The notes under the pieces were generated by a model. That model worked only from the letters and a program-made list of their open reading frames with translations, was not told the DNA's origin and made no database searches. A stretch of 64,000 nucleotides of DNA from Pseudogymnoascus verrucosus (taxonomy: Eukaryota), in the NCBI GenBank assembly GCA_001662655.1, contig KV460210.1; one strand, written 5' to 3'. This document shows positions 22,398-59,182 of the stretch, one piece after another. Each line of letters opens with the position of its first letter. The first letter of the stretch is position 1. The position numbers and the translations under genes were made by a program.

Positions 22398-24733
22398 ATG
22401 TTTTTCCAAGCTCTACTGTTATTCCTCCTCGAGCAGCTCCTGTCCGCAGCATCGTCAAGCGAGATAGCACACGGTTTGACGGCTGCATTTTCAAGTGCCT
22501 GTATGAGTCTAGCTACTTCTTTAAAACTGCCAAATGTGATAGTCAATTTCGCGCATTTGTAAGTTTTGTTCTGAAATCTACCATTGTATTACAGTTAACG
22601 CAACTAGCGTGCCGGCTGGGACTGTTCTCCAATTTCAGCAAGATGAAAACTGTATGTGTATTCACGGCCTGTAATAATACCGTTGGCTGCTTGTAGTTAC
22701 TGAGATAAAACTTAGTGGTCACCTGCAATCGCCCGAACCAGACTATCGCGTCTGATATCTGCCGAGTGGCCATGTATGTGTCGACATCAAGTCGGTCAGG
22801 AATTACTTTAGAAGCATGGCTGCCTTCTACTTGGACAGGTATGATTGACTACCTACCTGCTATGGTTCGGTATGCTTATTAGTACCAGGTCGGTTTTTAA
22901 GCACCGGAAACGGTGGCCAATCCGGCTGCATCCAATATGAGGATTTAGGATATACCTCCAGTTTAGGATTTGCAGCTGTTGGTATGTAAAGACAGCTGAG
23001 ATATATCTACGGAGTAATTTCATGCTGATCAAGAAACAGGAGTTAACCATGGTCATAACGGAACTAGGTAAATTCTAAGATATAACCTTATGTACAGTAC
23101 TCACCATTATCAGTGGCTTGTCATTTTATCACAACCCAGACGTTTTAATCGACTTCTATCGCTCGTAAAGACATCCCATTTGCAATTCTTCCTACGCTCA
23201 CTCTACTATGGACCACAGTCTCAAGGCTTCAAACCGGCGTCACAGTTGGAAAAGCGCTGACTCAGATCTTCTATAAACGCGCACACACGAAAAGCTATTA
23301 CCTAGGCTGCTCAACTGGTAGTAGACAAGGCTTAGAATCGGCACAGGTATTTCCCGAGACCTTCGACGGCATTTTAGCCGGCGCACCGGCAATTGACCGC
23401 AATCGTTTAGTTGCGTGGTCAGTTTTTCTGGTATTCGCAAATTGCACGAAGAATAACTGGTTTTAGGAACGGTCACTTCTTCGGCATTATCGGCACTGCG
23501 AACTTGTCGGATTTCATCTCGGCTGCGCTCTGGAATACTATCCATATCGAGGTCTTGCGGCAATGCGATGGACTTGATGGCGTTGTCGACGGCATCATAG
23601 AAGATCCGAGCCTATGCAGTAATTATCTCCATCTCTATATCTTTTGCATTCTATGGAATTGACCACGAGCTCGTAGATCCGAGACCAGAGGCACTACTGT
23701 GTAAACCCCGGAACTCTATTAATTGCTTGACTCCAAATCAAGCGCAGATTGTCCGGAATGTATTTTCGGATTATATTGCAGAGGATCGATCATTAATATT
23801 CCCGCGCTTGCAACCGGGTGCAGAGTTGACGTCTGTGTCTGATCAATTCTCAGGTAGGAGATCCATGCAAGTTATATGATAATCGTACGACACTGATATG
23901 ATAATCAAGGAATGCCTTCAAAATATATAGGGGTCAGTAACATCGATATCTCCATGATAACAAACAGAAACTAACTAGTGGTAGGATTGGTTTAAATACG
24001 TAGTGTGAGTACAAGTACCGCCTGCTTTTAATAGATTAACTAAGAAAATATCACTAACCAACTCTTACGTCTGGATACGAAAATATCACCTGGGACCCCT
24101 CCAGCTTCAACATCAAAGACGCCACCTACTCCATCGCCCTCAACCCCGCCAACGTCGAGTCCTTCAAAGGTCCATCTCCCCACCCTCCCCCAATCCACCC
24201 CGCCAAATCCAAACTAACCCCTCCTCCCAGGCAATCTCTCCGCCTTCCGCGCCCACGGCGGCAAAGCCCTCATCTACCACGGCCAACAAGACTCGACCGT
24301 GACCTCGCCCAACACAGCGCGCTACTACGACCACGTCTCACGCACGATGGACCTCGACTCGTCATCGCTCGACGATTTCTTCCGCTACTTCCGCATCGGC
24401 GGCATGAGCCATTGCTCTGGGGGACCGGGGGCCTGGCGTATTGGTCAGACGGCGTTGGGTGCGTTGGGGGGGGAGGGGGGAGCTGGGTCAAATGTCTTGG
24501 CTGCGCTGGTGGAGTGGGTTGAGAAGGGGGTGGCGCCGGAGACGGTTAGGGGGGTGGGGTTTGTGAATGTAAGCTGCTGGGTGCGTGTGGTTCTGGTAGT
24601 GCAGGGGCTAATTGTGTAGGGTACGGTGGCGCTGGGAGTGGATTTCGTGAGAGAGCATTGTAGATATCCGTTGAGGAATGTTTGTGTGGACCCGAAGAGG
24701 TATAAACATCCGAAGAGTTGGAAATGTGTTTAA
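22398..24733 (+). CDS. Tannase/feruloyl esterase family protein, many introns
   Basis: Exons encode EAWLP..W.GRFLSTGNGG, SYYLGCSTG.RQG, FDGILAGAPA, CDGLDG..DGII, LIYHG.QD, GGMSHCSGG, WVEKGVAP, HCRYP; intactness of all splice frames not verified. Confidence 0.85.
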
Positions 24734-28269: not shown

Positions 28270-29713
28270 TCACAGCAACCCCATCCCCAAAACCACCCCC
28301 CCAGCAACCACCGCCGCCACGACACTCCACGTCTTCCCCGCAACAGCGCCACTCGGGTTCGTCTCCAGTCCCTGACTAAACCCCGTCTCCGTGCTATCCG
28401 CCGCATCCGCCGCCGTCCCCGACCCATCCTGCCCATCCCCGGACGAAGTCGTTGATCCACTCGCATCCGGATGTCCATCCGTCCCCGGTCCCGCGCCATC
28501 CAGGCCTGGGATGACCGCCACGCCCGAGCTGGCGGACGGGTCGGCGCTGCTGCTCCCCGAGTCTGCGTAGTTGGCGTTCATGTCTGTGCCGGTGCCGAGG
28601 AGGGATTTGAGGATCGTGGGCTTGTCGCCGTCGACGACGGTGTCGTTGGTGCCGGCCTTGTTGTTGTAGGTGTACGATGTCTTCTTGTTGGTGCCGGGCG
28701 CGTTGTCGGCGTTGAAGCACTCGACGCTCACGCTCTCGAATTGGGCGTAGTAGTACCCGTTGGCCTGGATGTCCGGGCCGGACCAGTCGATCACGCCGCC
28801 GGCCCAGTCGATGGTGCCTTGGGCGTTGGAGGCGAGACCGCCAGGCCAGATGGAGATTTGCACACGCGCGGGGGTCTGGGGGAAGGCCCATTGGTTGGAG
28901 GTTGCGTTCCAGGTGTCCTTGCGGAGCTTGGTGCGGCCGACTTGGCCGTCGACGAGCCAGGTGATGGAGTCGGGGGTCCAGCGGATCTCGTACTCGTGGT
29001 AGTTGTTGAAGGTGTCGGAGAGGGAGATGTTGCCTCCTTCTTTGTCTGGTGGGGGTTAGGATTAGGTCGAGTGTGGAGCGGTTTGTCGAAGGAGACTTAC
29101 AGTTCGTGATACCCTGGTAATAATAATTCGTCTGCGCCGTCTTGAGATCAACACCAACATACTCATAGTCAATCTCATCCTTAACATCCGACAGCAGAAT
29201 AAACGCCGTCACCACCCCCTTCCCCCTCCCCGTCTTAAACTTCGCCTTCACATTCCCATACCACATATACCTCGACGTCGCCAGCACCGTGCCCACCGTA
29301 CTCGGCGCCATCGTCAGCAGCAGCGAATTCTTATATGGCACCGCGCTCCCATCCATCACCCAGTCCGTCTTGGACGGGTCACCAAGGTACTTCGTTTTCG
29401 AGGTGATGCCGGTCATGTCCTTGAATGTGTATGTCTTGTCCTGGCACACCGGCGCCGGCACGCACGAGTCGAGGCCGAAGGAGGAGAGGGGGTCGCAGCC
29501 GCCGAGGCAGTAGGCGCCCTTGCCGCAGTCGCCGTATTCTATGGGTGGTCAGCCAGTCGGTCATGGTTGGGTTATTCTAGGGAGTAAGTAAGAAAACTTA
29601 CGGGAGCAGCAGGGCTGGGATTCCGGGCAGTGGTTATCCAGATCGCACTTCGTCGCGGCATGTACCGTAGCGATGGCCGCGAAGGCGGCCAGGAGGAGTG
29701 AAGAGCGGACCAT
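28270..29713 (-). CDS. UTR2: GH16 Crh/Utr2-family chitin transglycosylase with CBM18-like N-terminus and GPI signal, multi-exon
   Basis: CP...PCCS.YG.CG.GAYCLGGC chitin-binding module; SDVKDEIDYE catalytic motif; WPGG..GTIDWAGG.IDW; Ser/Gly-rich tail. Confidence 0.9.
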
Positions 29714-34610: not shown

Positions 34611-35028
34611 CTGATGCTGCTGCTGCTGCTGATATGGGTTGCCCATGCCCTGGGGCTGCGGGTAGCCCATCTGACCCGTCGGGTCGAAGTCCATACGCTT
34701 CGACATCGAATGGCTGTAGGCGTCCGGTATGGTGTACTGGGGGAGTATCGGGTAGGTGTGTTGCGGCACACCGGACGTGCGGTGAGGACGCGTCGGTGTC
34801 TGGCGCGCGAGGTTTGGTTGAGTCTATACAAACACATCGTGTAAGTACATTGAATACCAAATACTCAAGATGCCATATACCATCTACCATATGGCGAGGT
34901 ACAAAGGTACCAGGCCATAAGGTGAGGTCAATGGGGGGATGAGGGTGAGGAGGAAAGGTACTTACGACTTCGTGTTGTCGATGTTTGGAGGATGCGTTAT
35001 TCGGCAGAGCCAAGCCGATGTTGCTCAT
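33825..35028 (-). CDS. Myb-domain transcription factor with polyQ tract, multi-exon (start uncertain)
   Basis: PWTAAEEQRL..W.EIAKTFPSRTEGSVKKHWYK|DMHYAEFAEDE|SAALLNAIKEYETNKWKVIGQKVGKPAK|ACEQYAKEHF. Confidence 0.88.
34544..34632 (-). repeat. CAG/CAA trinucleotide repeat encoding polyQ
   Basis: TGC/TGT runs on the + strand. Confidence 0.9.
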
Positions 35029-37092
35029 ATCTCTCTATTGTTTCTGTTACCATCCGAGTTTGAAAGAAGGAAGAGTTTGACGTTTTGTCAAACGCGACAG
35101 TCGGCCGAGTCAATTGTGACGCGGGCCTTGGTGACTTGAAGCTGAGAGTTGCGTGCGGCCGACTTCCACTCTCTTGTATGGCAAAAGAGCGACGCGACTG
35201 CAGCGACGAGGAGGTACAGCGTGTGGGGGGAGGGGCTGGAAGTGAAGTTCCAGAATGAATATGAAGAGAGGCACGTACGGTTGTTAAAGGTGAATGGAGG
35301 TACTTGACCGGTTATAAAGATGGAAAAGAAGCCAAAGGTCACTTTGGCGCGTGGCGGAGGTTGAGTGACAAGGAGTGAGTTGTTAAGTGCAAACAAGAGG
35401 ATTGTTCGTTGGATAGAGCGCGTAGAGTGTTGTTAGAGTGTGTCGAGGTGTGTTGAGATGTATAGTAGTAACAAGAGTAGTATAGTAGTAGAGTAGTAGA
35501 AGTAAAGAAGTAGAGGATGTAGAGATGTAGAGATTGTAGAGTTGCAGGAGCAGGAGAGAGGTATACTGGTAGTATATTTGGGTGGATCAGGTGGTACCGT
35601 GTCGTGGTCTGTGAGTGGGAGTACAGGAGGATCAGGGCCTGTATGTTTGGTGTGGTGTAGTGTGTAGTAGTGGTGTAGTAGTGGTGGTGAAATGCAGATG
35701 CCTGTATCTCTGTATGGGTGATGCGCGGTATGCCTGTTTGTGTTTTTGTATACTGCAGAAGGAGTATAGAACGGTGCGGATAACGACTTTTGGAGCTTTG
35801 ACGCAAGCTTAGGAGGGTAGAAGGATAGAAGGGATGATGGAACGAAGATGAATTAATCCGTGGCTGGTGGATTGTAGATGGATGACTGGATTGATTGATT
35901 GATTGATTGATGGATCTTGATTTGGGGATGGGGGATGGTGGATGGGGGAAGGGGGAGAAGAGTGGGAAGTATTGTATTGTATGGATGTAAGTATGTGCAA
36001 GGTCAAGAAAGGTAGAGTAGAGTAGAAGGTGGGTGCACTAAAAGTAAAGGAGGTTAGTAAGAATTGGGACTAGTGTGGAAAATGGATTTGAGAGGGAGGG
36101 GAGAGGGGATGGATTGGGATTGGGAGGGATTGGATTGGATTAGAAGGGGGATGGGGATAGGGATAGAGTGGGAAAGGATGATGGGTCGGAAGGGAAAGGA
36201 TGGGTGGTGGTGGTGGGAAGAGAGAAGAGAGGAGAGAGAGAAGAGTACGGTACGGAAAGTACGGAGGAGGTACGGGGGGTACATATTGTTGAGAAACGGG
36301 TAGCACGAAGAACGCAGGGTTAAAGGAGGGCTGGATGAGGGTGGAGGAAGTAGAGGTACAAAAAATCAGGTTGAGGGAAATAGTGAAGCGTGGTGCAATA
36401 GTAGAGAGGCGGCAAGCGGTAGTGGTGCCTCTCCCTCGATGGAGTCGGTGGAGACCGGCGGATCGATGGATGGCCGGTGGATTCTCTGGTCTGTTGATGG
36501 ACAACGCTCGGCGGGCACTTGGTGGTGGACTGGATTGCTTGGATTGCTTGGATTGGCGTTAGATTGGGCAGAACGGTGGAGTCGGTGGATGCGGACCACC
36601 ATCAACTACACTCGGTGGAGCGAGAGAAACGCGAAAAAAATCCCCAAAACAGGCGGGGCGGGCGCTAGTGCGGCAGGTGGTCATGTACTGCGCCGTACTG
36701 GGTTGTACTGTGCGGTACATGTAAGCGACGATCGGGGAGAGGCGACCATGGTGGGAGGTGACCAGAGTCAGTCAGCGACAGGCAACTAGAGTCAACCACA
36801 GTCAGCCATATAATGGATTATACAGATACAGATATAAGAGGGGATATAAAAGTAACGCGACCAGGGACGAGGGGCAGACGCAGCGATAAGTACGGTACAC
36901 TACACCACAGTACTGTAGAGTACAATACAATAAGAAAGCTTCACTCTTTCCCTCTTCTCCATCAAATTGACTCTAGAGCTTACTTGCACAGCACAACAGC
37001 ATGGCAGATACATCCCCAACACCACACTCAGTCAGCATGCCGCAAGTACCCTCTGTGTTCCCTCTCTGCCTTCCTGTCCCTCCACACTACAC

Positions 37093-37290
37093 ACACGCAT
37101 ACTCTACTCGACTGCCATACAAGCATCCTCTGATCTCTCTACTACACGCATATCTGGTCTACCCGACTGCCATACACGCAACTCTAGTCTACTCAACTGC
37201 CTCACACGCATATCTGGTCTACTCTACTGCCGCCACACACTCATATACTCCAGTCTCCTCTGCTCACCACACACGCAATTCTACTTCTCC
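37093..37290. repeat. Degenerate ~30-bp tandem repeat (ACACGCATATCTGGTCTAC..CTGCC)
   Basis: ACACGCATATCTGGTCTAC is exact at ~37144 and ~37204, with variants around. Confidence 0.6.
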
Positions 37291-39394
37291 TCACCACAGA
37301 CACACACATCTACCTCTCCATTCCCCTCCCTCCTCCCATCCCTCCTCCCATCCAAGTCCCCAAAAAGTACCTCACCGTACCACACCATCCCCCAACCAGC
37401 CCCCCCTACGACCCACTCCCCCCTCCCTTGGCCGTACCACCCACCGTACCATCCATCCACACTCTACCACCCACCCACCGCACGCTCATCTGCTTGGTGG
37501 GTGTATCTGCCGGCAGAGAGATACGTGGGTACTACTTCCCTTCCCCTTCCCAGCCCAGCCCCCGTCGTCCGCGGCGGATGTTGGCGATGTTATCGTCGCG
37601 GTACATGCCGGGGTGAGTAATCGTGATCGCTAGAGAAAAGGTAAGGTAAGGTAGGTAAGTATACCTCATCACCGTCAGCACGCGTGGACAGACACGCGAT
37701 ATCAATTATAAACCCACTCAACGTCAACAGCCCTCAACACACACCGAACTCACAGAAAACTTACGCCACAGAACAAGAAACGCGCCCAGACGAAAGAGGC
37801 GACGAAGAAACACGGCAGACCGGACACGACAAACCCGCCACCACTACACCTCCTCCTCCTCTCCACCGGGAGGCGACCTTCCCGAGCCAGCAAGCACGCA
37901 CTTGACCTTCCCTTCCCATCTCCACCCACCACACACACACACAAACCCATGTCCGGCGTCCCCCTCCTCTCTCTTCCTAGCCATAGCTACAGTACAACTA
38001 CGTCAACACCAACCCCCTCCCCTTCCCCATGCAGCCGCGTGCGCTGATCTAATCTCCCCCCCCCCAGCCATCTCGGCGTGAAAAGAGCATGGGAGTGGTG
38101 GTCGTGGTTGTGGCTATTTCGAGATGGTGCCTAGGCTGGTCGGAAATGTCGGAGGGAAGGGTGGTGGTGAGGGTGCTGGGCGGCGTCTCGGCGGGGGGGA
38201 GGGATGGGAGGCAGGAGGGATCCGGCGTGTGTGGTTGTGGTGGTGGTGTTGGGTTTGTTGTTGTGGCTGGTTTGGTGGTGGTGCAGATACGGAGGCGCAA
38301 GGAGGAGCGGGTGGTGGTGTTGGGGAACGGCTCATACGAAACGGCTCGTACGGATGGGCATACATTCCTTCCTACCTTCCTGTTCCCTCTATCCCATTCC
38401 AACCGACCGTTGGGGATGGGTTGATTAAAGACTGATAACTGACTGAATTGATATAACCACAATCACCAGAGTAGCCATTTCAGCCAAGCTTACGTGCATG
38501 GCTACGTATGAATTTGTACCATCCACCCACAACCATAGTATACAGAAAGTACACACCTGTACAGCGCTGTACACTATCGCTACATCCCCGACCACTACAA
38601 AAGGCTGTATCCCCCGAGTACCAGCTAGGAACGCACTGGACGCCGTCTCTGTCGCGATGGGTGGACGATCACTTTTAGCTGATTGCGGGGTAGCGGCGGT
38701 GGGAGGGAGTCGCGGTCGGTACTTTGAGTTTTGCTGGTGATGCTGCATTATAGTATAGTATATTCCGTGTCATCGTGTGTATGTGTGTATGCAAGCACGA
38801 CCGAGACGAAACATCAACATCAACATCACCCATCCATCTGCCATCTCCCATATCCCATATCCCAGTTCCTCAGCCACAATCACAATCACTATCACACACA
38901 TAATCACTCAAAATCCCAACACCCATCTCATCCCGCTACTATCCCCAACCATCTGCCTAATCCCCCAAAATAGACTTCCAGCCCCGGCCTTCCTCCTCTC
39001 CCCCCCCTAACCCCCTTGCTGCCACACACAGCGCACGCGAGCATACATACTCGCATATCTGGTTCGTCATGTGTTTGTGCCTGTGCTTCTGCTTCTGCTT
39101 TTCTCCGTCTGCGCCGGCCCTTGAGTCGCTCTCCCTTTTCGTAGACGGGGAATATGGACACACCCACGCACGGAGGAAGGGGGTTGCCAAGGCTAGTCCA
39201 GTACAGTTTGTTTCTTGTCCCGGATCTGCCCGTCTACGTACATGCGTCGTTCCTGATGGCCCCCCGGACGGACGCCTTTGGTCGCAGCACCCTTGGAAGT
39301 GCTACTTCAAGGGGCAGGGATATAAAAAAAACACCGGGCTGCGCGGCTGGGTGATATATATATCTAGACATGTAAAAAAAAAAACGGCAAAAAA

Positions 39395-39457
39395 ACATAC
39401 AACAGTGGGTATTCGCTGGTGGTCACCTACCCAACTACTAATCTACCGATCTCAAGC
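39395..39457 (-). rRNA. 5S rRNA: 5S rRNA, 3' half (nt ~57-119) of split copy 1
   Basis: Minus strand GCTTGAGATCGGTAGATTAGTAGTTGGGTAGGTGACCACCAGCGAATACCCACTGTTGTATGT followed by a T-run Pol III terminator. Confidence 0.92.
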
Positions 39458-40617
39458 AATCCTCTGGCTAATAGTTAAATCGGTGCCATCCGGCCTAGTG
39501 GGTGAGCCTCGCCGCCCTTACCCCTTGTTTTGTGATCGCAACCATCTCAACCACCCCTAAGTCTGTGGACTTGCACAGCTTCATTACATATCCCATATAT
39601 AATGGCTACCTTCCTGTAATGGGCACAGTACCGCAGTAGGTGTTACAGTAGGCGAAAGAGCAATGTGCAGTAAAAGACAGCACCGTGATATATAGAGTAC
39701 CGTATCGCTAGCAGCACAGAAACCATGTACTGTAATAAAGTTTGGTTACTGTAGAAGTTAAAAGACACCACACAGTAATATTTACAGTACTACATTCAAA
39801 GATGTAAGCGGCGATTACTATGAATTCGCGTGATTTCAGCCACTCACAGATCTACGGCTCCTGCGCTTAAAATTCGATCCGATATAACTAAAGCAACACG
39901 GATAAACAGCGACGCAGCCAAAATCGTGTGAGAATCCCCGGCTACCGTAATCTTTCCCTTAGCACACGGAACAGGAAGCTTTACAGTAACCGCAGTATAT
40001 AGGACTAATTAAATTACTACACTATTCTACAGGGCTTCGTACAGTATATGTAGAGCTTAAGGGGGGCCACAGAACCCTGAGTAATCGCCAGCTAAGCTGC
40101 TTAGAGCTCAGCTGTGATTGTGGCTACATCTTGGGCAGCACCACAGCCGCACCGAGCCATCCTGGGAGGTGGACGCTGTGGCTGGGGAAAACCTTCGGTT
40201 ACAGGGTTAATAACCCACCGAATCCCAGTCCGCATGTCCGCCTTCCTCCAACAGCAACCTAGATCCTTCAGAGGGAATGCGCCTTTAAATCTCAAAAATT
40301 CACGTAATTGTCATGAATGTAGTGACCAGTGTGCTGTTGCCGCTAAAGTAGCCACTTATATTGGAACGCGACAGTACAAACAACAGTAGCCCGTCCTGGA
40401 GACTTGCATGAGCTCAGCCTCGTTCTGTTGGCATCGCGCAGTCCACATTCATTTAATCCGCCATGTCAGCTTTTTCGTCACCTAGGCTTCGGAGTGCTTT
40501 ATTTTCTGACAGCTTGCTTCATCCTCTAACGTAAGGTCATCCCGCACAACCATTTTCCACTTCCATTTCGGATGCTGATGATTTTGACAGATTGTATCGT
40601 TCCACAACTATTGTAAC

Positions 40618-43600
40618 ATGGAGGCCATAGGACTAGCGGTCGGAATCGCAGGATTGGCGGGCCTGTTCAGTACCTGCCTTGATCTTATTGACAAGGCTAA
40701 CTCTTACAGAGACTACGGTCCTGAGTCACGCTCTGTTGTCGCACAGTTTGAAGCTAACAAGCTTCTGTTTAGAAGGTGGGCTCAAAGTGTTAGGATAGAA
40801 GAAGGCAATCCCAAGAACAATCATCATAGTGCTCTAGACAATCCCGCGACTGCTTTAGTGGTATTGAAAATTTTGTCGAGCATACAGGAAACCTTCAACA
40901 AGACCGAGAATGCCCTGTTAAACATGCAGCATGTGTCGACAGCCGATCCGAGCTCTAAGAGCTTTGACTATACGCAAGGCTCGAATCAGAATGTGGAGTC
41001 CAAGGTATCGACGTCGAAGCGCCATAAGATCGGATGGGCCTTGATGGGAAAGGCGAAATTCATCCAGCAAGTCCTTTAGTTTGGGGCTCTAGTCCAGAGA
41101 CTGAATAGCTTAACGTCTGTAGATCACTTAAAAGGTATTTCTTCTCCTCTTAGCCATTGGGTTTAAGTCACTCACTGATTGTAGAAAGTGATGTTGCCAA
41201 CCCTCGAGATTTTTCCAAATCGTAAAGCCTTCTGACTGAAGCACTAAAGTTGATCGAAGGTCAGATTGCGGTAGAGATCAAAATCGAAATCGAAACCTAG
41301 CTCGGTGCTACCTGGACCAATGGACTTTATGACAACTTTACTCGAAGTAGGCTAGACGGAACTTGTGACTAGATCTTAAGTAGCCCTTCATTTTTGGAAT
41401 GGGTCTCCTCCGAATTCCCGTCAGACTCTTCAAAGGTGCTGTGGGTCAACGGGCCAGCAGGATATGGGAAGACGACTATCTGTGCCAGGGTCGTCGAACA
41501 TCTGTCAACGATACTAAAATCTCCCCTCGCATATTATTTCTTTTCAGCCGACTTTGAAAGCCGAGGCGACCCCTTTGTCGTTATTCGATCCTGGATAGCA
41601 CAATTAGTAGCGTGTAATCGAACTGCCTTTGAAATCGCCCATGAAGAGTGGCAAGCAAAAGATGGCCATGTTGCATCTCGGACTGCCATCATGAACCTCT
41701 TTAAGCTCATCGTTAGCAGTCTACCAAACTGCACATTTGTCCTTGATGGGCTCGATGAATGCGCTTGGTTAGAGGCGAACCCAATGGCTACGGATGGAGA
41801 TGGCCGCACTAGTTTCCTTACATCTCTGATCGATACCATTGCAAAAACCACCACCCGAATTATGGTTGTTAGCCGTGATGAAGCTGATATTCGCTCGGGG
41901 ATATATAGCATACACCCCAGTCAGGGCGTGTACGAGCACAAGATTTCTCCCGTAGATGTTCAATCTGACGTTTCACTGTTCTCGAAGAGCATTGTCAACA
42001 AGAAGCTAAAGAACAAAGATGAAATGGTTAGAAATAATTTATCACAGAGAATAGTCGACCGCAGCAATGGGATGTTCTTATGGGTGAAAATGCAGGAGGG
42101 TAACTTGCGCGGGGGTAAAAGCATATTGCAACTGCAAGAAACAATTGATGAAACCCCGACAGGCCTAAGCCATCTTTACGATCGAAATTGGAAGAAAATT
42201 ATAGGCCTTCAACAGAGTGATAGAACTCGGGCGCTCTTAATTTTACGTTGGGCAGCGTTTGCGATGCGGCCTCTCACTGTCCTGGAAATCACAGAAGCCC
42301 TCCTTGTTATGGATGATGACGGCTATGACAACATCCTGGTAAACGGTCTCCTAGATGAGATTGATGAAGAGTACGTTAATAGTGAGATCAAGGGTCTCTG
42401 TGAGTCGCTTGTAGAGACTCGAGGAGCATCCACTAAGGGGAGTTTCGCATCAATGACCGTTCACCTAGCACACTTCTCAGTCAAGCAATATCTCCTACAC
42501 AACATGCCAACGTCTAGCCTACTAGGAAACAATATATCTTTACAGAGTAGCGAGGCCATTCAGTGCAATGAGCTAGCTAAAACTTGCCTGCGCTACATCA
42601 ATTTCCGAGATATTTGGCAGCAGCGCGTTTGTTCTAAGGACAGCGTTGATAGCCGGCCCTTCCGAGACTACGCAGCTACTTCATGGCATCGGCATCTTTT
42701 TCCTGCAGGAAAAAACTACACCGATGTACTTTCCCTGGTAAATCGACTGTTTCATCCTGAAAATATCAATTGGCAATCATGGGCAGCATGGTTTGATTCT
42801 GTTGAACCATTAGTGCCTACTAAGGATTTAAATGAAACAAGGTCGATGAGCCCACTGTACTATGTGTCACTTCTTGGCATCTATGATGCTGTTGTGTACC
42901 TAACAAAGGAGTTGAAACTTGACCTGAATTACGTTGGTGTAGGGCATAGAACACCATTATATGCAGCCTCATGGAAAGGCAACATCGATGTGGTTAAGGT
43001 GCTACTGGAGCTTGGAGCCGATGTTATAGTTGCGGATAGTAACGGAGCAACACCGTTAAAGCGTGCGTCACAACACGGGCACGTCAAGGTAGTCAAGGTG
43101 CTACTTGAGCACGGGGCCAATGTCACTGTTGCTGAAGAAGGAGAAACACCGTTATATATTGCGTCATACAATGGGCACGTTGACGTAGTTAAGGTGCTAC
43201 TTGACTATAGAGCCGATGTCACAATTGCTCTTAGAGGATGGACACCGCTAAGTGCAGCTTCTAGCGGTGGACACGTTGATGTGGTTAGGGTGCTTCTTGA
43301 ACGTGGAGCTAACACAACAATTACAAACAGCGATGGAATGACACCACTATATTTAGCATCAATTTATGGATATGTTGATGTGGTCAAGGTGCTACTTGAG
43401 CATGGAGCTGATGTTACAGTTGCAAACATTACTGGATGGACACTGCTAAATGGAGCATCAAGCAGAGGACACGTTGATGTGGTTAGGGTGCTTCTTGAAC
43501 ATGGAGCTAACACAACAATTACAAACAGCAATGGAATGACACCACTATATTCAGCATCAATTTATGGATATGTTGATGTGGTTAAGGTGCTACTTAAGCA

Positions 43601-45152
43601 TGGAGCTGATGTTACAGTTGCAGACATTAACGGATGGACACTACTATATTTAGCATTAAGCAGAGGACACATCAATGTGGTTAGGGTGCTTCTTGAACAT
43701 GGAGCTAACATAACAATTACAAACAGCAATGGAATGACACCACTATATTTAGCATCACTTAATGGATATGTTGATATAGTTAAGGTGCTACTTGAGCATG
43801 GAGCTGATGTTACAGTTGTAAACATTAACGGATGGACACCGCTAAATGCAGCTTCTAACAATGGACACGTTGATGTGGTTAGGGCGCTTCTTGAGTATGG
43901 AGCTGATGTAACAGTTGCAAACAGCGATGGACTGACACCGCTAAATGCAGCATTAATTTATGGATATGTTGATGTGGTCAAGGTGCTACTTAAGCATGGA
44001 GCTGATGTAACAGTTGCAAACAGCGATGGACTGACACCGCTACATGCAGCATTAGTTAATGGATATGTTGATGTGGTCAAGGTGCTGCTTGAGCATAGAG
44101 CTGATGTTACAGTTGTAATGGATAATGGATGGACACTGATAAATTAGGAATATGGAAATATTTTGGGATATGCCGTACATAATGCTAAGGCATCATTGGT
44201 ACAGCTTCTGCTTGAAGTGGATACAGACACAAACCTTAGCAGCGACGATTATGGACAAGCCTTACAACTTGGATGCATTAATGGTAATGTACCTATTGTC
44301 GACGCACTAATATGTGCCGGAGCAGATCCCAATAGGGTAGATGAGCATGGATGGACTTCACTATGGTGTGCTTCACAATTTGAGCAAGATGTTATTATGG
44401 AGCGGCTTGTTGCATGTGGAGGAGATCCATCTTTGGCCACACGAAATTCGACACTCGCACTAACGTCGTGGAGTTTAGTAGATAAGTCTCCTCGCCTAGT
44501 TTTAAACGAGGATGCTATTACCATTAAATATGCTAGTAAGTATTCCCTACGCCCTGAGAAATTCGCGTTACTGATCAAAGTAATCGCGAAGGCATAGAGG
44601 GGAACGGAAAGGCGAATGCGGCAGCAGCTCGAGCGAACCACCCAATTTCTCTCTAGAATGCTCCTTTTTACTTTGAGATTACAGTCCTGGATAGTGGTGA
44701 TACAGGGTAATCCGTCTCTCAAATCTTTGCTGCGTGTGCTAACATCTTTTTCTCCTAGAGAGATTGGGTTAGGTCTCTGTAGTGGGTATGCACCCATTAA
44801 CGCTATGCCTGGGTGGAACCTTTCATCGTGGGGATATCATGGAGATGACGGCTACATCTATAACTCATTAGATACAGGGAAACCTTACGCTGATGTATTT
44901 GGGACTGGGGACGTCATTGGGTGTTGCCTCACCTGTGATAATGAAATTACTTTTACTAAAAATGGGATTTCCCTTGGTAAGTTAGTTAATATCTTTTGTT
45001 GGCTATAGACAAGCTAATACTACAATCTAGGAAGTGCAATGAAGGCCACAGAAGGCAAACTATACCCTGTTATTGGCATGAAAAGTTGTGGTGCTTGCAT
45101 TCGAGTAAATTTTGGCAATGAGCCTTTCCAATGTGATTTCGCGCTAATCTAA
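40618..45152 (+). pseudogene. NLR-like HeLo-NACHT-ankyrin-SPRY gene with RIP-type nonsense mutations
   Basis: HeLo-type N-terminus (GLAVGIAGLAGLFSTCLD); Walker A GPAGYGKT; Walker B VLDGLDE; more than 10 ankyrin repeats; SPRY motifs MPGW..SWGYHGDDG, GDVIGC, LYPVIG; in-frame stops at 41077, 41223, 41298, 41370 and 44145. Confidence 0.9.
43150..44140 (+). repeat. Array of highly similar 99-bp ankyrin-coding repeats
   Basis: GGATATGTTGATGTGGT(C/T)AAGGTGCTACTT and GGACACGTTGATGTGGTTAGGGTGCTTCTTGA unit types alternate. Confidence 0.9.
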
Positions 45153-45391
45153 GGGGCGACCATTTTACTAGAGTGGAAAGCTTGCAAGAATTGGAAAGGA
45201 TGTCTGTTAACAGGGTGCGAGCTGGGGTGCCTGTTGACGAGTTCCCTAGATCTATTGTTGGGGCGAAATCGCTTTCTAGGGCTTACGTTTAGATGGAGAT
45301 ATGCTAGATTTCAATGCAAGTCCACAGGTCCCATGCCCCGATTCCGCGCTATGCCTATTGGCACGATTGAGACTATTAGCCAGAGGATACG

Positions 45392-45452
45392 CAAGCTTGT
45401 GTATGGCAGAGCGGACGGGATGCCCAATTCCCTTAAGTCTATGGTCGTATGT
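45392..45452 (-). rRNA. 5S rRNA: 5S rRNA, 5' half (nt 1-61) of split copy 1
   Basis: Minus strand ACATACGACCATAGACTTAAGGGAATTGGGCATCCCGTCCGCTCTGCCATACACAAGCTTG; TATA-like element ~25-30 nt upstream. Confidence 0.92.
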
Positions 45453-45754
45453 GGGAGTTGTGCAGTTGTTAGTGGTGATATATACTATCCCCCCTCCCCC
45501 ACCCGATATAGAGAAAAAAGGCGTAAATAGTTCCCCTACCTAGATCTGCCTGTCTATGTACATATATATAATAGTAGGTATTCGTAGGAGGAATATAAAG
45601 ATTTAGATGGGTAGATTACGATTTCTAGAGATTCGTTGTGTGATTCCGTAAGCGTGAACTAAAATGTAGAATTATATAGTACGATGGCATTTACTTACAT
45701 AGTAGCTCTAGAGGCTATTCCGCATGTTACAACTAAACAACTAGTGCATCGAAC

Positions 45755-47371
45755 TTAGCAGGGTCTTCCTAGGATAACTCTAAATAAACCCCTAAGTAAT
45801 AGGACCAGCGCCGCCGCCACCACTGCCGCCGACTCCGACGCAGACCGCACGGCTGTCGCTTACGCCAAGACCAGAATACACCCCTGTGTCACAGTTAGTC
45901 CCGATCCAGGGGTTCCAGGATGTTAGTTGAGCAGGCGTGATATCGAAGTCCTCAGCGATGTCAGAGCAGAGCTGTAGTCCGACAGACCGGCCATCGACGG
46001 CCGTAAAGCAGGTACATGTTGATATTATTCCCGGATGCGGGTGGTCGGCGTAGTATTCAAGGAAATCGTCTTCTATGATTAGGGCTGAGTTTTTAATAAC
46101 TCATGTTAGCTTTGCGAGGTGGTTTAGTGTGTCTAAATCGTGCTCACGGACGGCATGGGGTCCGACTTACGGGGCAGAAACGAAGTGCCGTTTAAACCGC
46201 AGTACCTGTATCCCTCCTGTAGCATGCACGGATCTACAGATGCTAGGCTCGGGTTCCATGAGAGGAAGTCGGCAAGCGGAACCTCAAAGACCGTCGTGGT
46301 GTAGTCGCAGGTATTAGCATTATTGATGATGGCGACTGTATCCGGGTGTACACTCTAGTCGGTGATTGCGGGGATGGAGAAGTGGTCGATGTAGCCGTCG
46401 CAGTCGGATGGGGTTCCAGGGGCGATTGGGAGTTCGACTATGGGCGTTATGATCGGTTCTGTAGTTGAGAGAGGTTGCGTCGTAGTAGTGATAGTGCCGT
46501 CGCCTAGGTCGTCTCTAGGAGGACTGACGCAGATTAGAGTCTCGGCGAGGGGATCAAGATTCGTGCAGAGCTGGTTGATATTAGGGTTCCAGTTCAGGAG
46601 ACTAATGTCGTTCATGTAGCTGTGCTGTGCCAGGATACTCTCGCAAGTCTCATTATACTTCACATGGTATAGATCACAAGGACTTGCAAATTCAGGGTCG
46701 TAGCCAAACGGCTAGTTTAGCTGGGTTTGCACGACCCCAAGTATGCAATCAGAGAAAGTTTGAGCTAATGACAATGGGCCGGATCCCAACCAAGAGACAA
46801 AGATCTCATCGCAAAACTGGCCTATAGAGCTGCCGTTATATAATCAGCGTTAATGACTGATCGGAAGCGGTTTCGACAGAGGGGGGGGAATCAACAAGAC
46901 CTACGTGTCTTTTCTACACGAAAGATCGTATGTGTATAAGAAACGATCAACTACATAAGTAGCTGTATACCAAATATAATTAGCTATAGATACTTATTAG
47001 GCAGAAACAGACCGAAGATGATCGAGCTATAGATGTCTAGACGGACCAGGCTAAATGACGCCGTCAAACTCAACAACATCAGTGTCTAAATTGCAGCCCA
47101 AGGCAATGGTTTGACGGACGTTTGTTAAAGCTGTACAGCAAGCTGGAGTGCATAATGCCGTGAACTGCTCTAAGTCGAGGCGCGGATTAGTAGCGGAGAC
47201 GCCTATCAGAAAGCTAGGGCAGTTGGGGGCAGTCGTGTTGAGAGCTTCCATGCAGTTTTCGCTAACTCCTAGATAGTCTAACTCCATCGCCGTATCTTTA
47301 AACTGTTAAGCGTTAGCGCTACTGGCTAGATGTGCTAGTAGTAAAAGTGATAATGAACAGGTGAGTGTCAT
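45755..47371 (-). pseudogene. Secreted LysM-domain protein pseudogene
   Basis: Signal peptide followed by TAA; C..ALNTT..C N-terminal domain; YHVKYNETCESIL...LLNWNPNINQLCTNL...ICVSPP LysM; PIAPGTPSDC; stops and frame breaks. Confidence 0.8.
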
Positions 47372-48173
47372 GGTGCCGAACGAACGAATTCTTTATCAAA
47401 ACTGCCATTCTGACCGTCTAGGACAATATTACATCTAATTCCAATATCTTTAGCTCAAAATGGTCTAGTTAGCGGGATTCTCCTCGCGATTTAAATTGAA
47501 GCTTGGCGAAGTGTTAATATCCATGGGTTGTCCTGCTGCCGAGCCTTAGTCTAAGCTGAGATAGCTGCCAAAAGAAAAATGAGGATTCTATTTCCTATTT
47601 CCTGTTTCAAGTGTTCAATATTTAGGATCCATAAACCCGTAGGACAATTAGCAGTTAATACCGAGGTTAGTGCGCTCTATATATGTACGGATTTAGTAAT
47701 GTAAGGTATGCCGTATCTTCCGCATTGCCTTGGTTTTTTACAGCTACCAGATTGTTCCATGGTCAGAATTTACCACATATCATCTCCAATCTAAGGATTG
47801 GATTTTCTAATTCCTAATATGAATTTCCTCTTTAACGGACCGCTGGCGCATGCTTAGCTACCATTTCTAGGTCTCCGAGTTGTTATCATCCTTAGTCCGA
47901 GCCTTCAGGTTCTGCTTCACCTTCCTTGAGGACGGCATACAATTCATCTGATCTTGTTAAATATAGTGCAGTTAGGGCCTTTAACGATTCCAAACCACCA
48001 TCAGTTTCATCTCTCTCTTCTTTGTCTGTTGTTCCCCTACCCGGATCTGCCTGCCTACGTACATACATCCTTCCTGATCCTCCGGACCCTTCCGCGCCTA
48101 TTCGGAACGTCAACCTTTAGAGCTGGCCGGGCCGAGTTTATGTATTAGAACGGCAATACAAAAGAGGCAAAAA

Positions 48174-48230
48174 ACATACAACAGGGGGTATGTATTCGCT
48201 AGTGGTCATCTACCTAACTACTACTACTAA
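48174..48230 (-). rRNA. 5S rRNA: Degraded 5S rRNA 3' fragment (split copy 2)
   Basis: + strand ACATACAACAG..TATTCGCTAGTGGTCATCTACCTAACTACTACTACTAA aligns to 39395-39441 with small duplications and transitions; preceded by the same GGCAAAAAA terminator flank. Confidence 0.8.
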
Positions 48231-56680: not shown

Positions 56681-58970
56681 TCTACATTTAGGAGCTTGGA
56701 CTCGATCTAGAATTCTCTAGAGAAAAGGAGGTGTTGAGATGGCTCTTCGGGTACGATAAAACTGGCTTATTTAGACAAGCATCTAAAACCCAAAGAATCT
56801 GCATTATCCTCAACAAACCCACTCATTAGTGTATTGAACCTTTGCCACTCCCCAAACATCACCTCAGTATGTAGATTAAGCGGATTGGAACAGACAGCAC
56901 ACAATGTATGTTCCTGCCCATGAGTGGGAATAACTCATGGCTGGGCCGCAACATATATTAATTCTACAATGCCCAACTGCATTGCAGATGCGTAATAAAC
57001 CCTGACCCTAAAATCCAACTGCATCATAGGTGCCTGATAGACCCTAGCCCTGAATAATATTATCCCAATACCTGTGAATTTGCCATGGCTGTCTCGGTGC
57101 TTAGTAAGATGGATCACCATTGCGGCAACACATAGCTTTTATACCCAATGATATGAAAGCTGAAAGGACGGCAGGCGTTCTGCTAAAAATGGATTTGGAA
57201 CAGCCGCAGCCGCTGGGGGGTTTGCCATCTATGGCCATATTTGACGGCAGATTCTCCAATCAGTTAACCAGCACTTTATCCAGTGGTCCAGTGTGACTAG
57301 ACCATCGAATGGACCCTCATGGTGGGGCATTATGGTGCAATATGAACAGGGCCTACCCCGCTCCTAACAATGTGGCAGCTACAAGTAATATTTTCCCGGG
57401 CTACATCCATTAGACTAAATTGGTTCTGCTGTTGGAAATCCATGTCCCGAAGCCCAACAACATCGTGAGCATATCATACCTCTGTCTGATTCTAGTTCTG
57501 AAATCCAACACCTTTTTGAGCATCTCATACCTTGATCTGATCATAACTCTGAAATGCAACCTGCATCTCTAACAATACAGGATCTAGCCGGTATTGGTTT
57601 CAAAATCCTACTGCATGGTGAGTACCAAAATAATTTCAAGGTGTAGATCCAAAATAAAGCAGATCATCTAATGATAGTTCCGAAATCGACCAGGATAACA
57701 AACCTAACTAGATGGCTACTGGGCATAAACGACAATTATATATAGGTTAGCTGCAAAGGTCATATAATAGTAGATGGCGGTTTGAGGTAGAAATACTCAA
57801 CGCTGCCTTATGCCTCAATTGCTCACGGTTTAGGTCAATAGATTCGTACAAATAAACATACAAACCATTCTTAAGTATTACAAAACGCCCCTGTTACTAC
57901 AGACTCTGCTCGATTGGCCAGTATATAGCGCCCCTTACACAGTGCATACGGAAAAGGCTGGGGGCGTGGACACCGACCGAGATTAGGGGCCCATGAGGTT
58001 GTTGGCGATGTTGGTTGCAAGGGTGCTAACTCTGCCTAAGCAGGTATTAGGTTGAACAGGTGAAACCTCTGAGAGAATAGACCCGATATGACTTTGTTGG
58101 TAAAAACTGCAGGCCTAAATGTGATTTTTAACCGTGTATGCATGCGCGACGCGGTGCTGGATAATATCTTGCAACTCTCTAGTACGGGATACGGGACAGG
58201 GGTAAGCAGCGTTTAATCATACCAGACTACGGAGGAACACCCTGCACCTTTCTCATTGTGAATGCTCTCCGACCATTTACCCCAAACCACCAAACACCCA
58301 CCATCCACCCCTGCCATTCTTTCGGCCATAAGCCCCCACACTGTTTCGAAGATTCAGGATCGATCATGACATATGCATTTCCTTAGTATCCTAGCCAGAT
58401 CTCAACTAGGCGGGCAACTGGCGTTCGACGGGAGCTAATGGTAGTAAATCTCCGTGTTGCCCTGTGATGGAAAAGGTGGTAGAGCTTTCTGAAAGATCGT
58501 GTAAAAAACTCGTGCCCAGTGGGACAAAGACCATAATGAGATTAAGATTGACGACTAGAAGAAGTTGACAAGTCCGTGAGAAGCTCGAACGTCGTCAAAA
58601 ACTCCAAGTTACGTGAGATTCATAAATGTATGTAGTCACCGCTGCTTTATATTCTGCCACTAACTTGAACTTTTGTGTTTTTGATGTGGTAATTAAATAC
58701 TTTCGGGCATAACGTGCCTCAAACTTATGGCTCACAAATGATTAAATTGACTGGAAAATAAGATCAGGACACCCTTAACATGGTATGTAAGCTACAAAAG
58801 CCAAACTTCGGTGCTGATACAAAAAAATGGCACGAAAGTGACGCCAAATTGACACGAAAATGTTGCTTCGCCTCACCCACACTCGCTCTGGTCACCCCCC
58901 GCGTCACCCTTCAGGCTGAAAAGGGCCTCGATTCTGTTAGCACGATTGAGACCATTAATCTGATGTTACA

Positions 58971-59031
58971 CAAGCTTATGTATGGCAGAGCGGACGAGAT
59001 GCCTAATTCTCTTGAGTCTATGGTCGCATGC
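58971..59031 (-). rRNA. 5S rRNA: 5S rRNA 5' half (split copy 2)
   Basis: + strand CAAGCTTATGTATGGCAGAGCGGACGAGATGCCTAATTCTCTTGAGTCTATGGTCGCATGC aligns ungapped to 45392-45452. Confidence 0.9.
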
Positions 59032-59182
59032 GGGAGTGTGAGGGAATGTTATATTATGGTGATATGACTTATAAAAGTTGTGTGTAGAGGAGGTACTTGT
59101 AACATTACTAACAGCAGCTGGCTATCTTTATATTCAACATCGTCGTTATTCTTTGACATACGAACGCGTCCCATAATTAAAT

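Follow-up and report, generated by a model that had tools for sequence, protein, structure and literature searches.

What kind of DNA can part a 5S rRNA gene into two pieces that still fit together to the nucleotide, and what could have placed it there? The question is raised by a locus of the fungus Pseudogymnoascus verrucosus (GenBank assembly GCA_001662655.1, contig KV460210.1), within a 64,000-nt stretch that was analysed as a whole and is referred to below as the window. Here, we describe a 5.9-kb insert in this window that is bounded by inverted ends and a 5-bp direct repeat, carries a single NLR gene, and really splits a minus-strand 5S rRNA gene in the manner of mobile DNA. Its anatomy is compared with that of Starships, fungal elements mobilised by a tyrosine recombinase with a DUF3435 domain (the captain), and with other target-specific systems.

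The 3' half of the 5S gene (RNA positions 57-119) lies at 39395..39457 on the minus strand (Rfam 5S_rRNA, 23.5 bits, E 0.008) and ends in a left CAAGC (39453..39457). Its 5' half (RNA positions 1-61) lies at 45392..45452, also on the minus strand, and on the plus strand opens with a right CAAGC (45392..45396); in an 81-nt search this half aligned with model positions 1-67 (12.5 bits, E 2.1). Each half alone falls below the gathering score of Rfam RF00001 (38 bits), and no intact 5S gene reaches that score anywhere in the window. A scan of the whole window against Rfam at E<=1 missed both known halves and the second 5S copy described below, and returned one unrelated weak match. When the halves are joined by their coordinates with one CAAGC kept, the product is 119 nt long, and its outer ends, which are 5.9 kb apart in the genome, pair as a 9-bp helix I (9 of 10 terminal positions paired); the folding energy of the rebuilt RNA is unremarkable (z = -0.2). 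The break falls at RNA positions 57-61, within the 8-bp palindrome CAAGCTTG (5S positions 54-61) to which CAAGC belongs in the rebuilt gene. Both direct repeats were read in the sequence, and at both boundaries the repeat equals the core of the target site. The insert between them comprises 39458-45391, or 5,934 nt.

Just inside both breaks lie inverted ends. The 17-mer ATCCTCTGGCTAATAGT is present without mismatch at 39459-39475 (+) and 45372-45388 (-), and at up to 3 mismatches these are its only 2 matches in the 64-kb window, against 0.15 expected from shuffles. The left terminal inverted repeat (39459..39498, +) begins 1 nt (A, 39458) after the left direct repeat, and the right one (45349..45388, -) is followed by ACG (45389-45391) before the right direct repeat, giving unequal offsets from CAAGC of 1 nt on the left and 3 nt on the right. 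Beyond its perfect 17 nt, the inverted repeat runs on imperfectly to 40 nt, with 75% identity. Farther in, the sub-terminal 13-mer CTGTGGACTTGCA is found at 39563..39575 (+), approximately 105 nt from the left insert end, and in inverted orientation at 45315..45327 (-), approximately 65 nt from the right insert end (2 matches in the window versus 0.10 expected). No long direct terminal repeats were found in the whole-window repeat search. Against the rest of the window, the insert has no further homology at E<=0.01 beyond the second-junction match described below, and against 48.2-59.0 kb its terminal 24 nt or so are the sole homology. The original prediction, made from the letters of this stretch, of an insertion into 5S that is flanked by a direct repeat of 5 bp and has inverted ends set in from it is borne out by coordinates that can be read directly and by halves that rebuild 119 nt. 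As a separate observation, the 13-mer GCACGATTGAGAC from the sub-terminal right end recurs at 46131-46143 (-) with 1 mismatch and in inverted orientation; the bases around it loosely resemble the left end and could be a third, decayed end or chance; with up to 2 mismatches allowed, the window contains 5 matches to GCACGATTGAGAC versus 1.29 expected.

One of these ends occurs a second time. In the whole-window repeat search, 45355-45458, which spans the right terminus, the direct repeat and the 5S 5' half, recurs at 58934-59037 with 85% identity over 104 nt. There, 13.5 kb from the first right junction, a second and diverged right terminus (58934..58970, +) directly abuts the CAAGC that opens a second 5S 5' half (58971..59031, -), which is broken at the nucleotide, and in the orientation, seen at the first. 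The two 5' halves are identical at 54 of 61 nt, all 7 differences being transitions (blastn, 91% over 56 nt). In an anchored comparison, the 31 nt to the left of the CAAGC at 58971 match the first right terminus at 24 positions (binomial 1.4e-9), and the next-best among the 147 CAAGC sites of the window matches at 14 of 31. A search for the termini beside other 5S halves had been proposed, and this homologous terminus answers it: such ends occur more than once, and since one of them meets a second 5S gene at an identical position, the element is site-specific. Insertion specific to site and strand is common to both junctions, the only two seen.

A second 5S 3' fragment at 48175..48223 (-; blastn, 90.6% over 32 nt, plus alignment) has the order and orientation expected of a partner to the half at 58971, and is its possible counterpart. 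Beside it, transition-tolerant local alignments found a left terminus no better than shuffles did (190, 79 and 314 of 500 shuffles reached the score), and no direct repeat or junction is recognisable. A complete second element of 10.7 kb is not claimed, its left end being undetectable. The DNA between 48175-48223 and 58934-59031 encodes a Zn2Cys6 transcription factor, an FMN-binding protein and a Cys/Met pyridoxal phosphate (PLP) enzyme, and includes approximately 6 kb with no Pfam matches.

Other traces of 5S genes surround both copies. A 39-nt block (87% identity) lies approximately 100-140 nt downstream of each, at 39219-39257 and 48040-48078, and a 21-nt piece of it is found again at 45543-45563. 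Two nucleotides past this piece begins a degenerate, transition-rich stretch resembling a 5S 3' part (45566-45591, 77% identical to 39397-39422). From this arrangement, three or more 5S units would appear to be clustered here. Clustered 5S genes are described as Starship hotspots in Aspergillus fumigatus (PMC12153272).

What could have moved the insert is not encoded in it. No DUF3435 captain, integrase or transposase family was found in any Pfam scan of open reading frames (ORFs) of the insert or the window. Four sets of ORFs were scanned: across the whole window, 117 with a length of 110 aa or more (scan A); 42 small ones from the non-coding ends of the insert (at least 30 aa in 39476-40617) and its antisense strand, at E<=5 (scan B); in 45.4-59.1 kb, 68 of the 84 that reach 55 aa (scan C, the other 16 being 4 in scan B, 4 in scan A and 8 unscanned ORFs overlapping the Cys/Met gene); and in 53.1-59.0 kb, 112 that reach 32 aa (scan D). 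Scan B returned three chance-level matches and nothing else, and no coding remnant is recognisable in the 1.1 kb before the NLR start or in the 240 nt after the NLR stop. The element-encoded tyrosine recombinase by which a Crypton is known is absent from the Pfam scans of both insert and window. The window contains no tRNA genes. That the insert would lack DUF3435 had been anticipated, and its Pfam scans show neither this domain nor a transposase domain; the same absence of the defining captain removes the ground for the accompanying label of 'mini-Starship'.

As predicted, the insert carries one NLR gene and no other. Encoded on the plus strand, it comprises HeLo, NACHT/NPHP3_N, a long ankyrin array and a C-terminal SPRY domain by Pfam. 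A five-exon model (40618..45152, +; exons 40618-41134, 41185-44535, 44598-44706, 44759-44976 and 45031-45152; 1438 codons) was fitted to P0001, a 1163-aa protein of Pseudogymnoascus sp. 24MN13 that has all four domains, and is identical to it at 1103 of 1159 aligned columns (98% across the first 500 residues of the query). The nearest relatives all belong to Pseudogymnoascus: sp. 24MN13 (98%), P. australis (90%), VKM F-4520 (86%) and VKM F-4518 (79%). A flanking GH84 gene is 98% identical to a cluster from Pseudogymnoascus sp. VKM F-4519, and both genes thus place the window in this genus. The 1.1 kb from the left end to the NLR start (39476..40617) has no recognisable coding sequence and is presumably the NLR promoter region.

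The gene model is interrupted by six premature stops, all on the plus strand. Stop 1 (TAG, 41077..41079) stands at a Q of P0001, P0003 and P0005, and stop 2 (TAA, 41223..41225) at a Q of the relatives; stops 3 and 4 (TAG, 41298..41300 and 41370..41372) each replace a W of the relatives, the latter within a conserved GTCDW motif; stops 5 and 6 (TAG, 44145..44147 and 44654..44656) each replace a Q of P0001, the last within the SPRY domain. Four of them thus lie between HeLo and NACHT, one in the ankyrin array and one in SPRY. The domains of a HeLo-NACHT-ankyrin fungal NLR are all present, yet not in a single open frame, and the annotated 818-aa product, P0004, begins downstream of the P-loop. 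With six in-frame premature stops, the NLR is a pseudogene in this genome and a dead cargo gene, which leaves the original prediction of an element that shuttles an immune-receptor gene overstated.

The 52 inferable non-synonymous changes comprise 30 GC-to-AT transitions, 13 AT-to-GC transitions and 9 transversions. Repeat-induced point mutation (RIP) was considered as the cause of the six stops and rejected, the insert having a TpA/ApT index of 0.88 and a (CpA+TpG)/(ApC+GpT) index of 1.27, versus 0.84 and 1.19 for the window. The context of the stops is uninformative on RIP because Q-to-stop and W-to-stop transitions are CpA-to-TpA by codon structure, and ordinary mutation bias fits the GC-to-AT excess (30:13, P = 0.014) equally well. 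The ankyrin-repeat array (42945..44223, +) repeats every 99 nt, its alternate (198-nt) units reaching 91% identity, and is approximately 279 residues longer than that of P0001, a difference that we take to be a change in repeat number typical of fungal NLR sensor domains. Among 120 listed homologues, PF00622 occurs in the SPRY tail after the ankyrins (44400-45152) and otherwise only in the 24MN13 protein, and the tail looks like a recent addition in a small NLR lineage.

What, then, is the insert? We propose a non-autonomous, site-specific mobile insertion of Starship (tyrosine-recombinase) type that lacks a recombinase gene of its own, a reading whose chances we judge to be about even. A recombinase encoded elsewhere, presumably a tyrosine recombinase, would bind both inverted arms and exchange strands within the short core CAAGC, which is common to the element and to the palindromic 5S site CAAGCTTG. 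Entry into 5S would then occur at one nucleotide and in one orientation, and the core would be left duplicated on both sides. The joined ends would read as a 17-nt arm, a 9-nt spacer (ACG, CAAGC, A) and a second 17-nt arm, which is the geometry of a tyrosine-recombinase core site. Such a layout is more easily explained by a dimeric, site-specific recombinase than by a transposase of the cut-and-paste kind: the arms stop short of the tips at unequal offsets (1 and 3 nt), an asymmetry that suits a crossover inside a spacer better than staggered cutting at the tips; the repeat is a short core that the palindromic target also contains; the joined ends give arm, spacer and arm; and the same nucleotide and orientation are used in two different 5S genes. 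The 5.9-kb form may have moved as such, with help in trans, or may be what an internal deletion left of a larger, captain-bearing element.

Starships, the fungal elements known to behave in this manner, supply the closest comparison. Among 222 curated Starship insertion sites, 23% are in 5S rDNA, at five or more distinct internal sites and strand-specifically (PMC11162782), and NLRs are recurrent Starship genes (PMC9156397), so that, as far as these sources describe them, the original prediction that Starships target 5S and carry NLRs holds. Like the 5S-targeting Starships described (Voyager; Osiris and other Enterprise-, Arwing- and Voyager-family elements), the insert uses a fixed internal 5S site in one orientation; like them, it has a short direct repeat equal to the target core, an NLR passenger, and the terminal inverted repeats that are frequent, not universal, among them. 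Enterprise has a 6-bp repeat in a palindromic target (PMC8092012). The Starship Hephaestus is reported to move via a circular intermediate joined at its repeat, and in the junction 40-mer given in that preprint we ourselves read, here too, short inverted arms that flank a spacer of approximately 10 nt once the ends are joined (bioRxiv 10.64898/2026.09.21.753150). No study of Starships in Pseudogymnoascus was found in our literature search.

Several differences weigh against this assignment. The feature that defines a Starship, an inward-reading DUF3435 captain at the 5' end, was found neither in the insert nor in the window. At 5.9 kb and one gene, the insert is far below the tens to hundreds of kb of described Starships, which are given as 27-393 kb (PMC9156397) and as up to approximately 700 kb (PMC12134995). 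Its 5-bp repeat is shorter than the 6-16 bp given for 5S-targeting Starships (PMC11162782), and the break at positions 57-61 differs from the described Voyager site, 20 bp from the 5S start. Mini-Starships, both the engineered mini-Hephaestus and the natural mini-Sanctuary, are small with normal ends, and mini-Hephaestus is experimentally mobile, but as described these keep the captain and hence are autonomous, unlike the insert. No left end can be detected for the second insertion, and the Cys/Met enzyme gene between the second-copy 5S pieces, one of a Pseudogymnoascus cluster with 31 members, accordingly resembles any conserved gene; for both reasons the second case may be only a solo end. 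Finally, sub-terminal inverted repeats beside a short duplication in a small RNA gene also describe Dada transposons, which use a DDE transposase. Membership of the Starships is not claimed: the insert would work like one, but the lack of a captain, together with a size and cargo far outside the family, keeps it from being classed as such.

One alternative concerns history. A full-size, captain-bearing Starship may have entered this 5S gene long ago and lost its captain and most of its cargo by internal deletion, the 5.9-kb form never having transposed. Captain-less 'degraded Starships' and solo ends are described (PMC9156397), as is a 5.5-kb degraded copy of Enterprise, polymorphic at one locus (PMC8092012). 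Like these (the Derelict regions, the Enterprise remnant of Podospora comata TD, and the solo ends 'bufo' and 'schoutedenella'), which are captain-less, sometimes a few kb long and at their original site, the insert may be a remnant. The decayed NLR, with its six stops and with 30 of 52 non-synonymous changes from GC to AT, agrees with such an age, as does the further decay of the nearby second junction. Both 17-nt ends, however, are still perfect and both direct repeats intact, and the deletion would have to take the captain yet spare at least 120 nt at each end together with a complete gene and its flanks. Degraded Starships, by contrast, are recognised in their descriptions by leftover cargo or single ends, and none is described there as a compact element that encloses one gene and retains both ends and both repeats. 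In the literature searched, which did not extend to supplements, we came across neither an account of a compact unit that lacks a captain and keeps both ends nor the terms 'captain-less' and 'non-autonomous Starship'. An immobile relic is fully compatible with the data and would be a sub-case of the Starship-type insertion proposed above, differing from mobilisation in trans in history only; as the actual course of events we consider it possible, on the doubtful side.

A second alternative changes the enzyme. The insert would derive from a DDE transposon with target specificity, either Dada-like or of an undescribed superfamily, and be non-autonomous; a transposase supplied from elsewhere would bind the sub-terminal inverted repeats, cut at the tips and insert into 5S with a short duplication. 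Dada elements (Dada-U6, -U1, -tRNA and -5S) insert strictly at fixed sites in multicopy small RNA genes, including 5S in fish, have sub-terminal inverted repeats near a short duplication, comprise internally deleted derivatives, and have fungal relatives in Laccaria (PMC3706591, PMC8869645). Non-autonomous DDE elements with cargo are known in fungi, for example the 14-kb ToxTA (PMC12506042), and the inverted repeat here is likewise sub-terminal, 1 and 3 nt in from the direct repeat. Set against this, Dada is described with a 6-7-bp duplication and an inverted repeat of 7-9 nt, versus exactly 5 bp and 17 nt here, and fish Dada-5S uses a different 5S sequence. In the literature consulted, Dada is recorded from animals, protists and one basidiomycete, the fungal record being Laccaria only, with none from Pezizomycotina, and host-gene cargo is not described for it. 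The end offsets in our insert are moreover unequal, and the bases next to the repeats disagree on either side; the duplication stops at 5 bp, since the base before the right CAAGC is G at one junction and A at the other, versus T in the target. A DDE transposon of this kind is, in our view, unlikely, yet still a rival. Other superfamilies were set aside as misfits by duplication length or termini: Transib duplicates 5 bp and has CAC termini, hAT duplicates 8 bp, Mutator 9-10 bp, Tc1/mariner TA and PIF 3 bp, Helitrons duplicate nothing, and LTR elements duplicate 5 bp and end in direct long terminal repeats (LTRs).

That no mobile element is present at all, an assembly error or chance rearrangement having put the NLR between 5S fragments, is very improbable: assemblers can be confused by multicopy 5S genes, and 5S fragments or pseudogene pieces are present locally (48175-48223, possibly 45566-45591), but a misjoin would create neither inverted ends nor a direct repeat, whereas here the halves fit to the nucleotide as a 119-nt gene with one shared CAAGC, perfect 17-nt inverted repeats lie just inside both breaks (0.15 expected at up to 3 mismatches), and the same terminus meets the same nucleotide at a second junction.

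Three further features of the window were noted. The region 35000-38500, just left of the first 5S copy, is of low complexity and extreme strand asymmetry (GC skew per kb of +0.52, +0.42 and then -0.45), with many short tandem repeats and no Pfam-matching ORFs. At 28270-29548 (-), a GH16 domain is divided between two ORFs that overlap in different frames (profile positions 4-97 and 104-175), which points to an intron or a frameshift. At 24218-24619 (+), a lone tannase fragment (profile positions 356-448 of 490) occupies an ORF by itself.

If the Starship-type insertion proposed here is a relic of deletion and nothing more, it represents ordinary Starship decay at a 5S hotspot. If it is mobile in trans, it would offer a simple natural recombination-site substrate with 17-nt arms on either side of a 9-nt spacer and with a defined target in 5S, for which the circular intermediate of Hephaestus is the nearest experimental parallel. 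A broader and tentative proposal, which we think rather less probable than its opposite, is that Pseudogymnoascus has a family of captain-less cargo cassettes: small units with Starship-type ends and one to a few host genes, here an NLR, that are moved between 5S genes by a captain encoded elsewhere. In bacteria, cis-mobilisable elements derived from integrative conjugative elements have lost their integrase, keep their attachment sites in a conserved RNA gene, and use the enzymes of a related element. The similarity is one of analogy only, since those elements are bacterial and their attachment sites usually lie at the 3' ends of tRNA genes. Such a family, if real, would be a eukaryotic counterpart of the integrase-less mobilisable islands of bacteria, and Starship recombinases would shuttle single genes and not giant elements alone. 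Because current detection tools start from the captain gene, they would miss captain-less cassettes entirely. Should captain-less units with intact ends indeed move in trans, the reach of Starship-type recombinases would extend far beyond the giant elements that have been catalogued.

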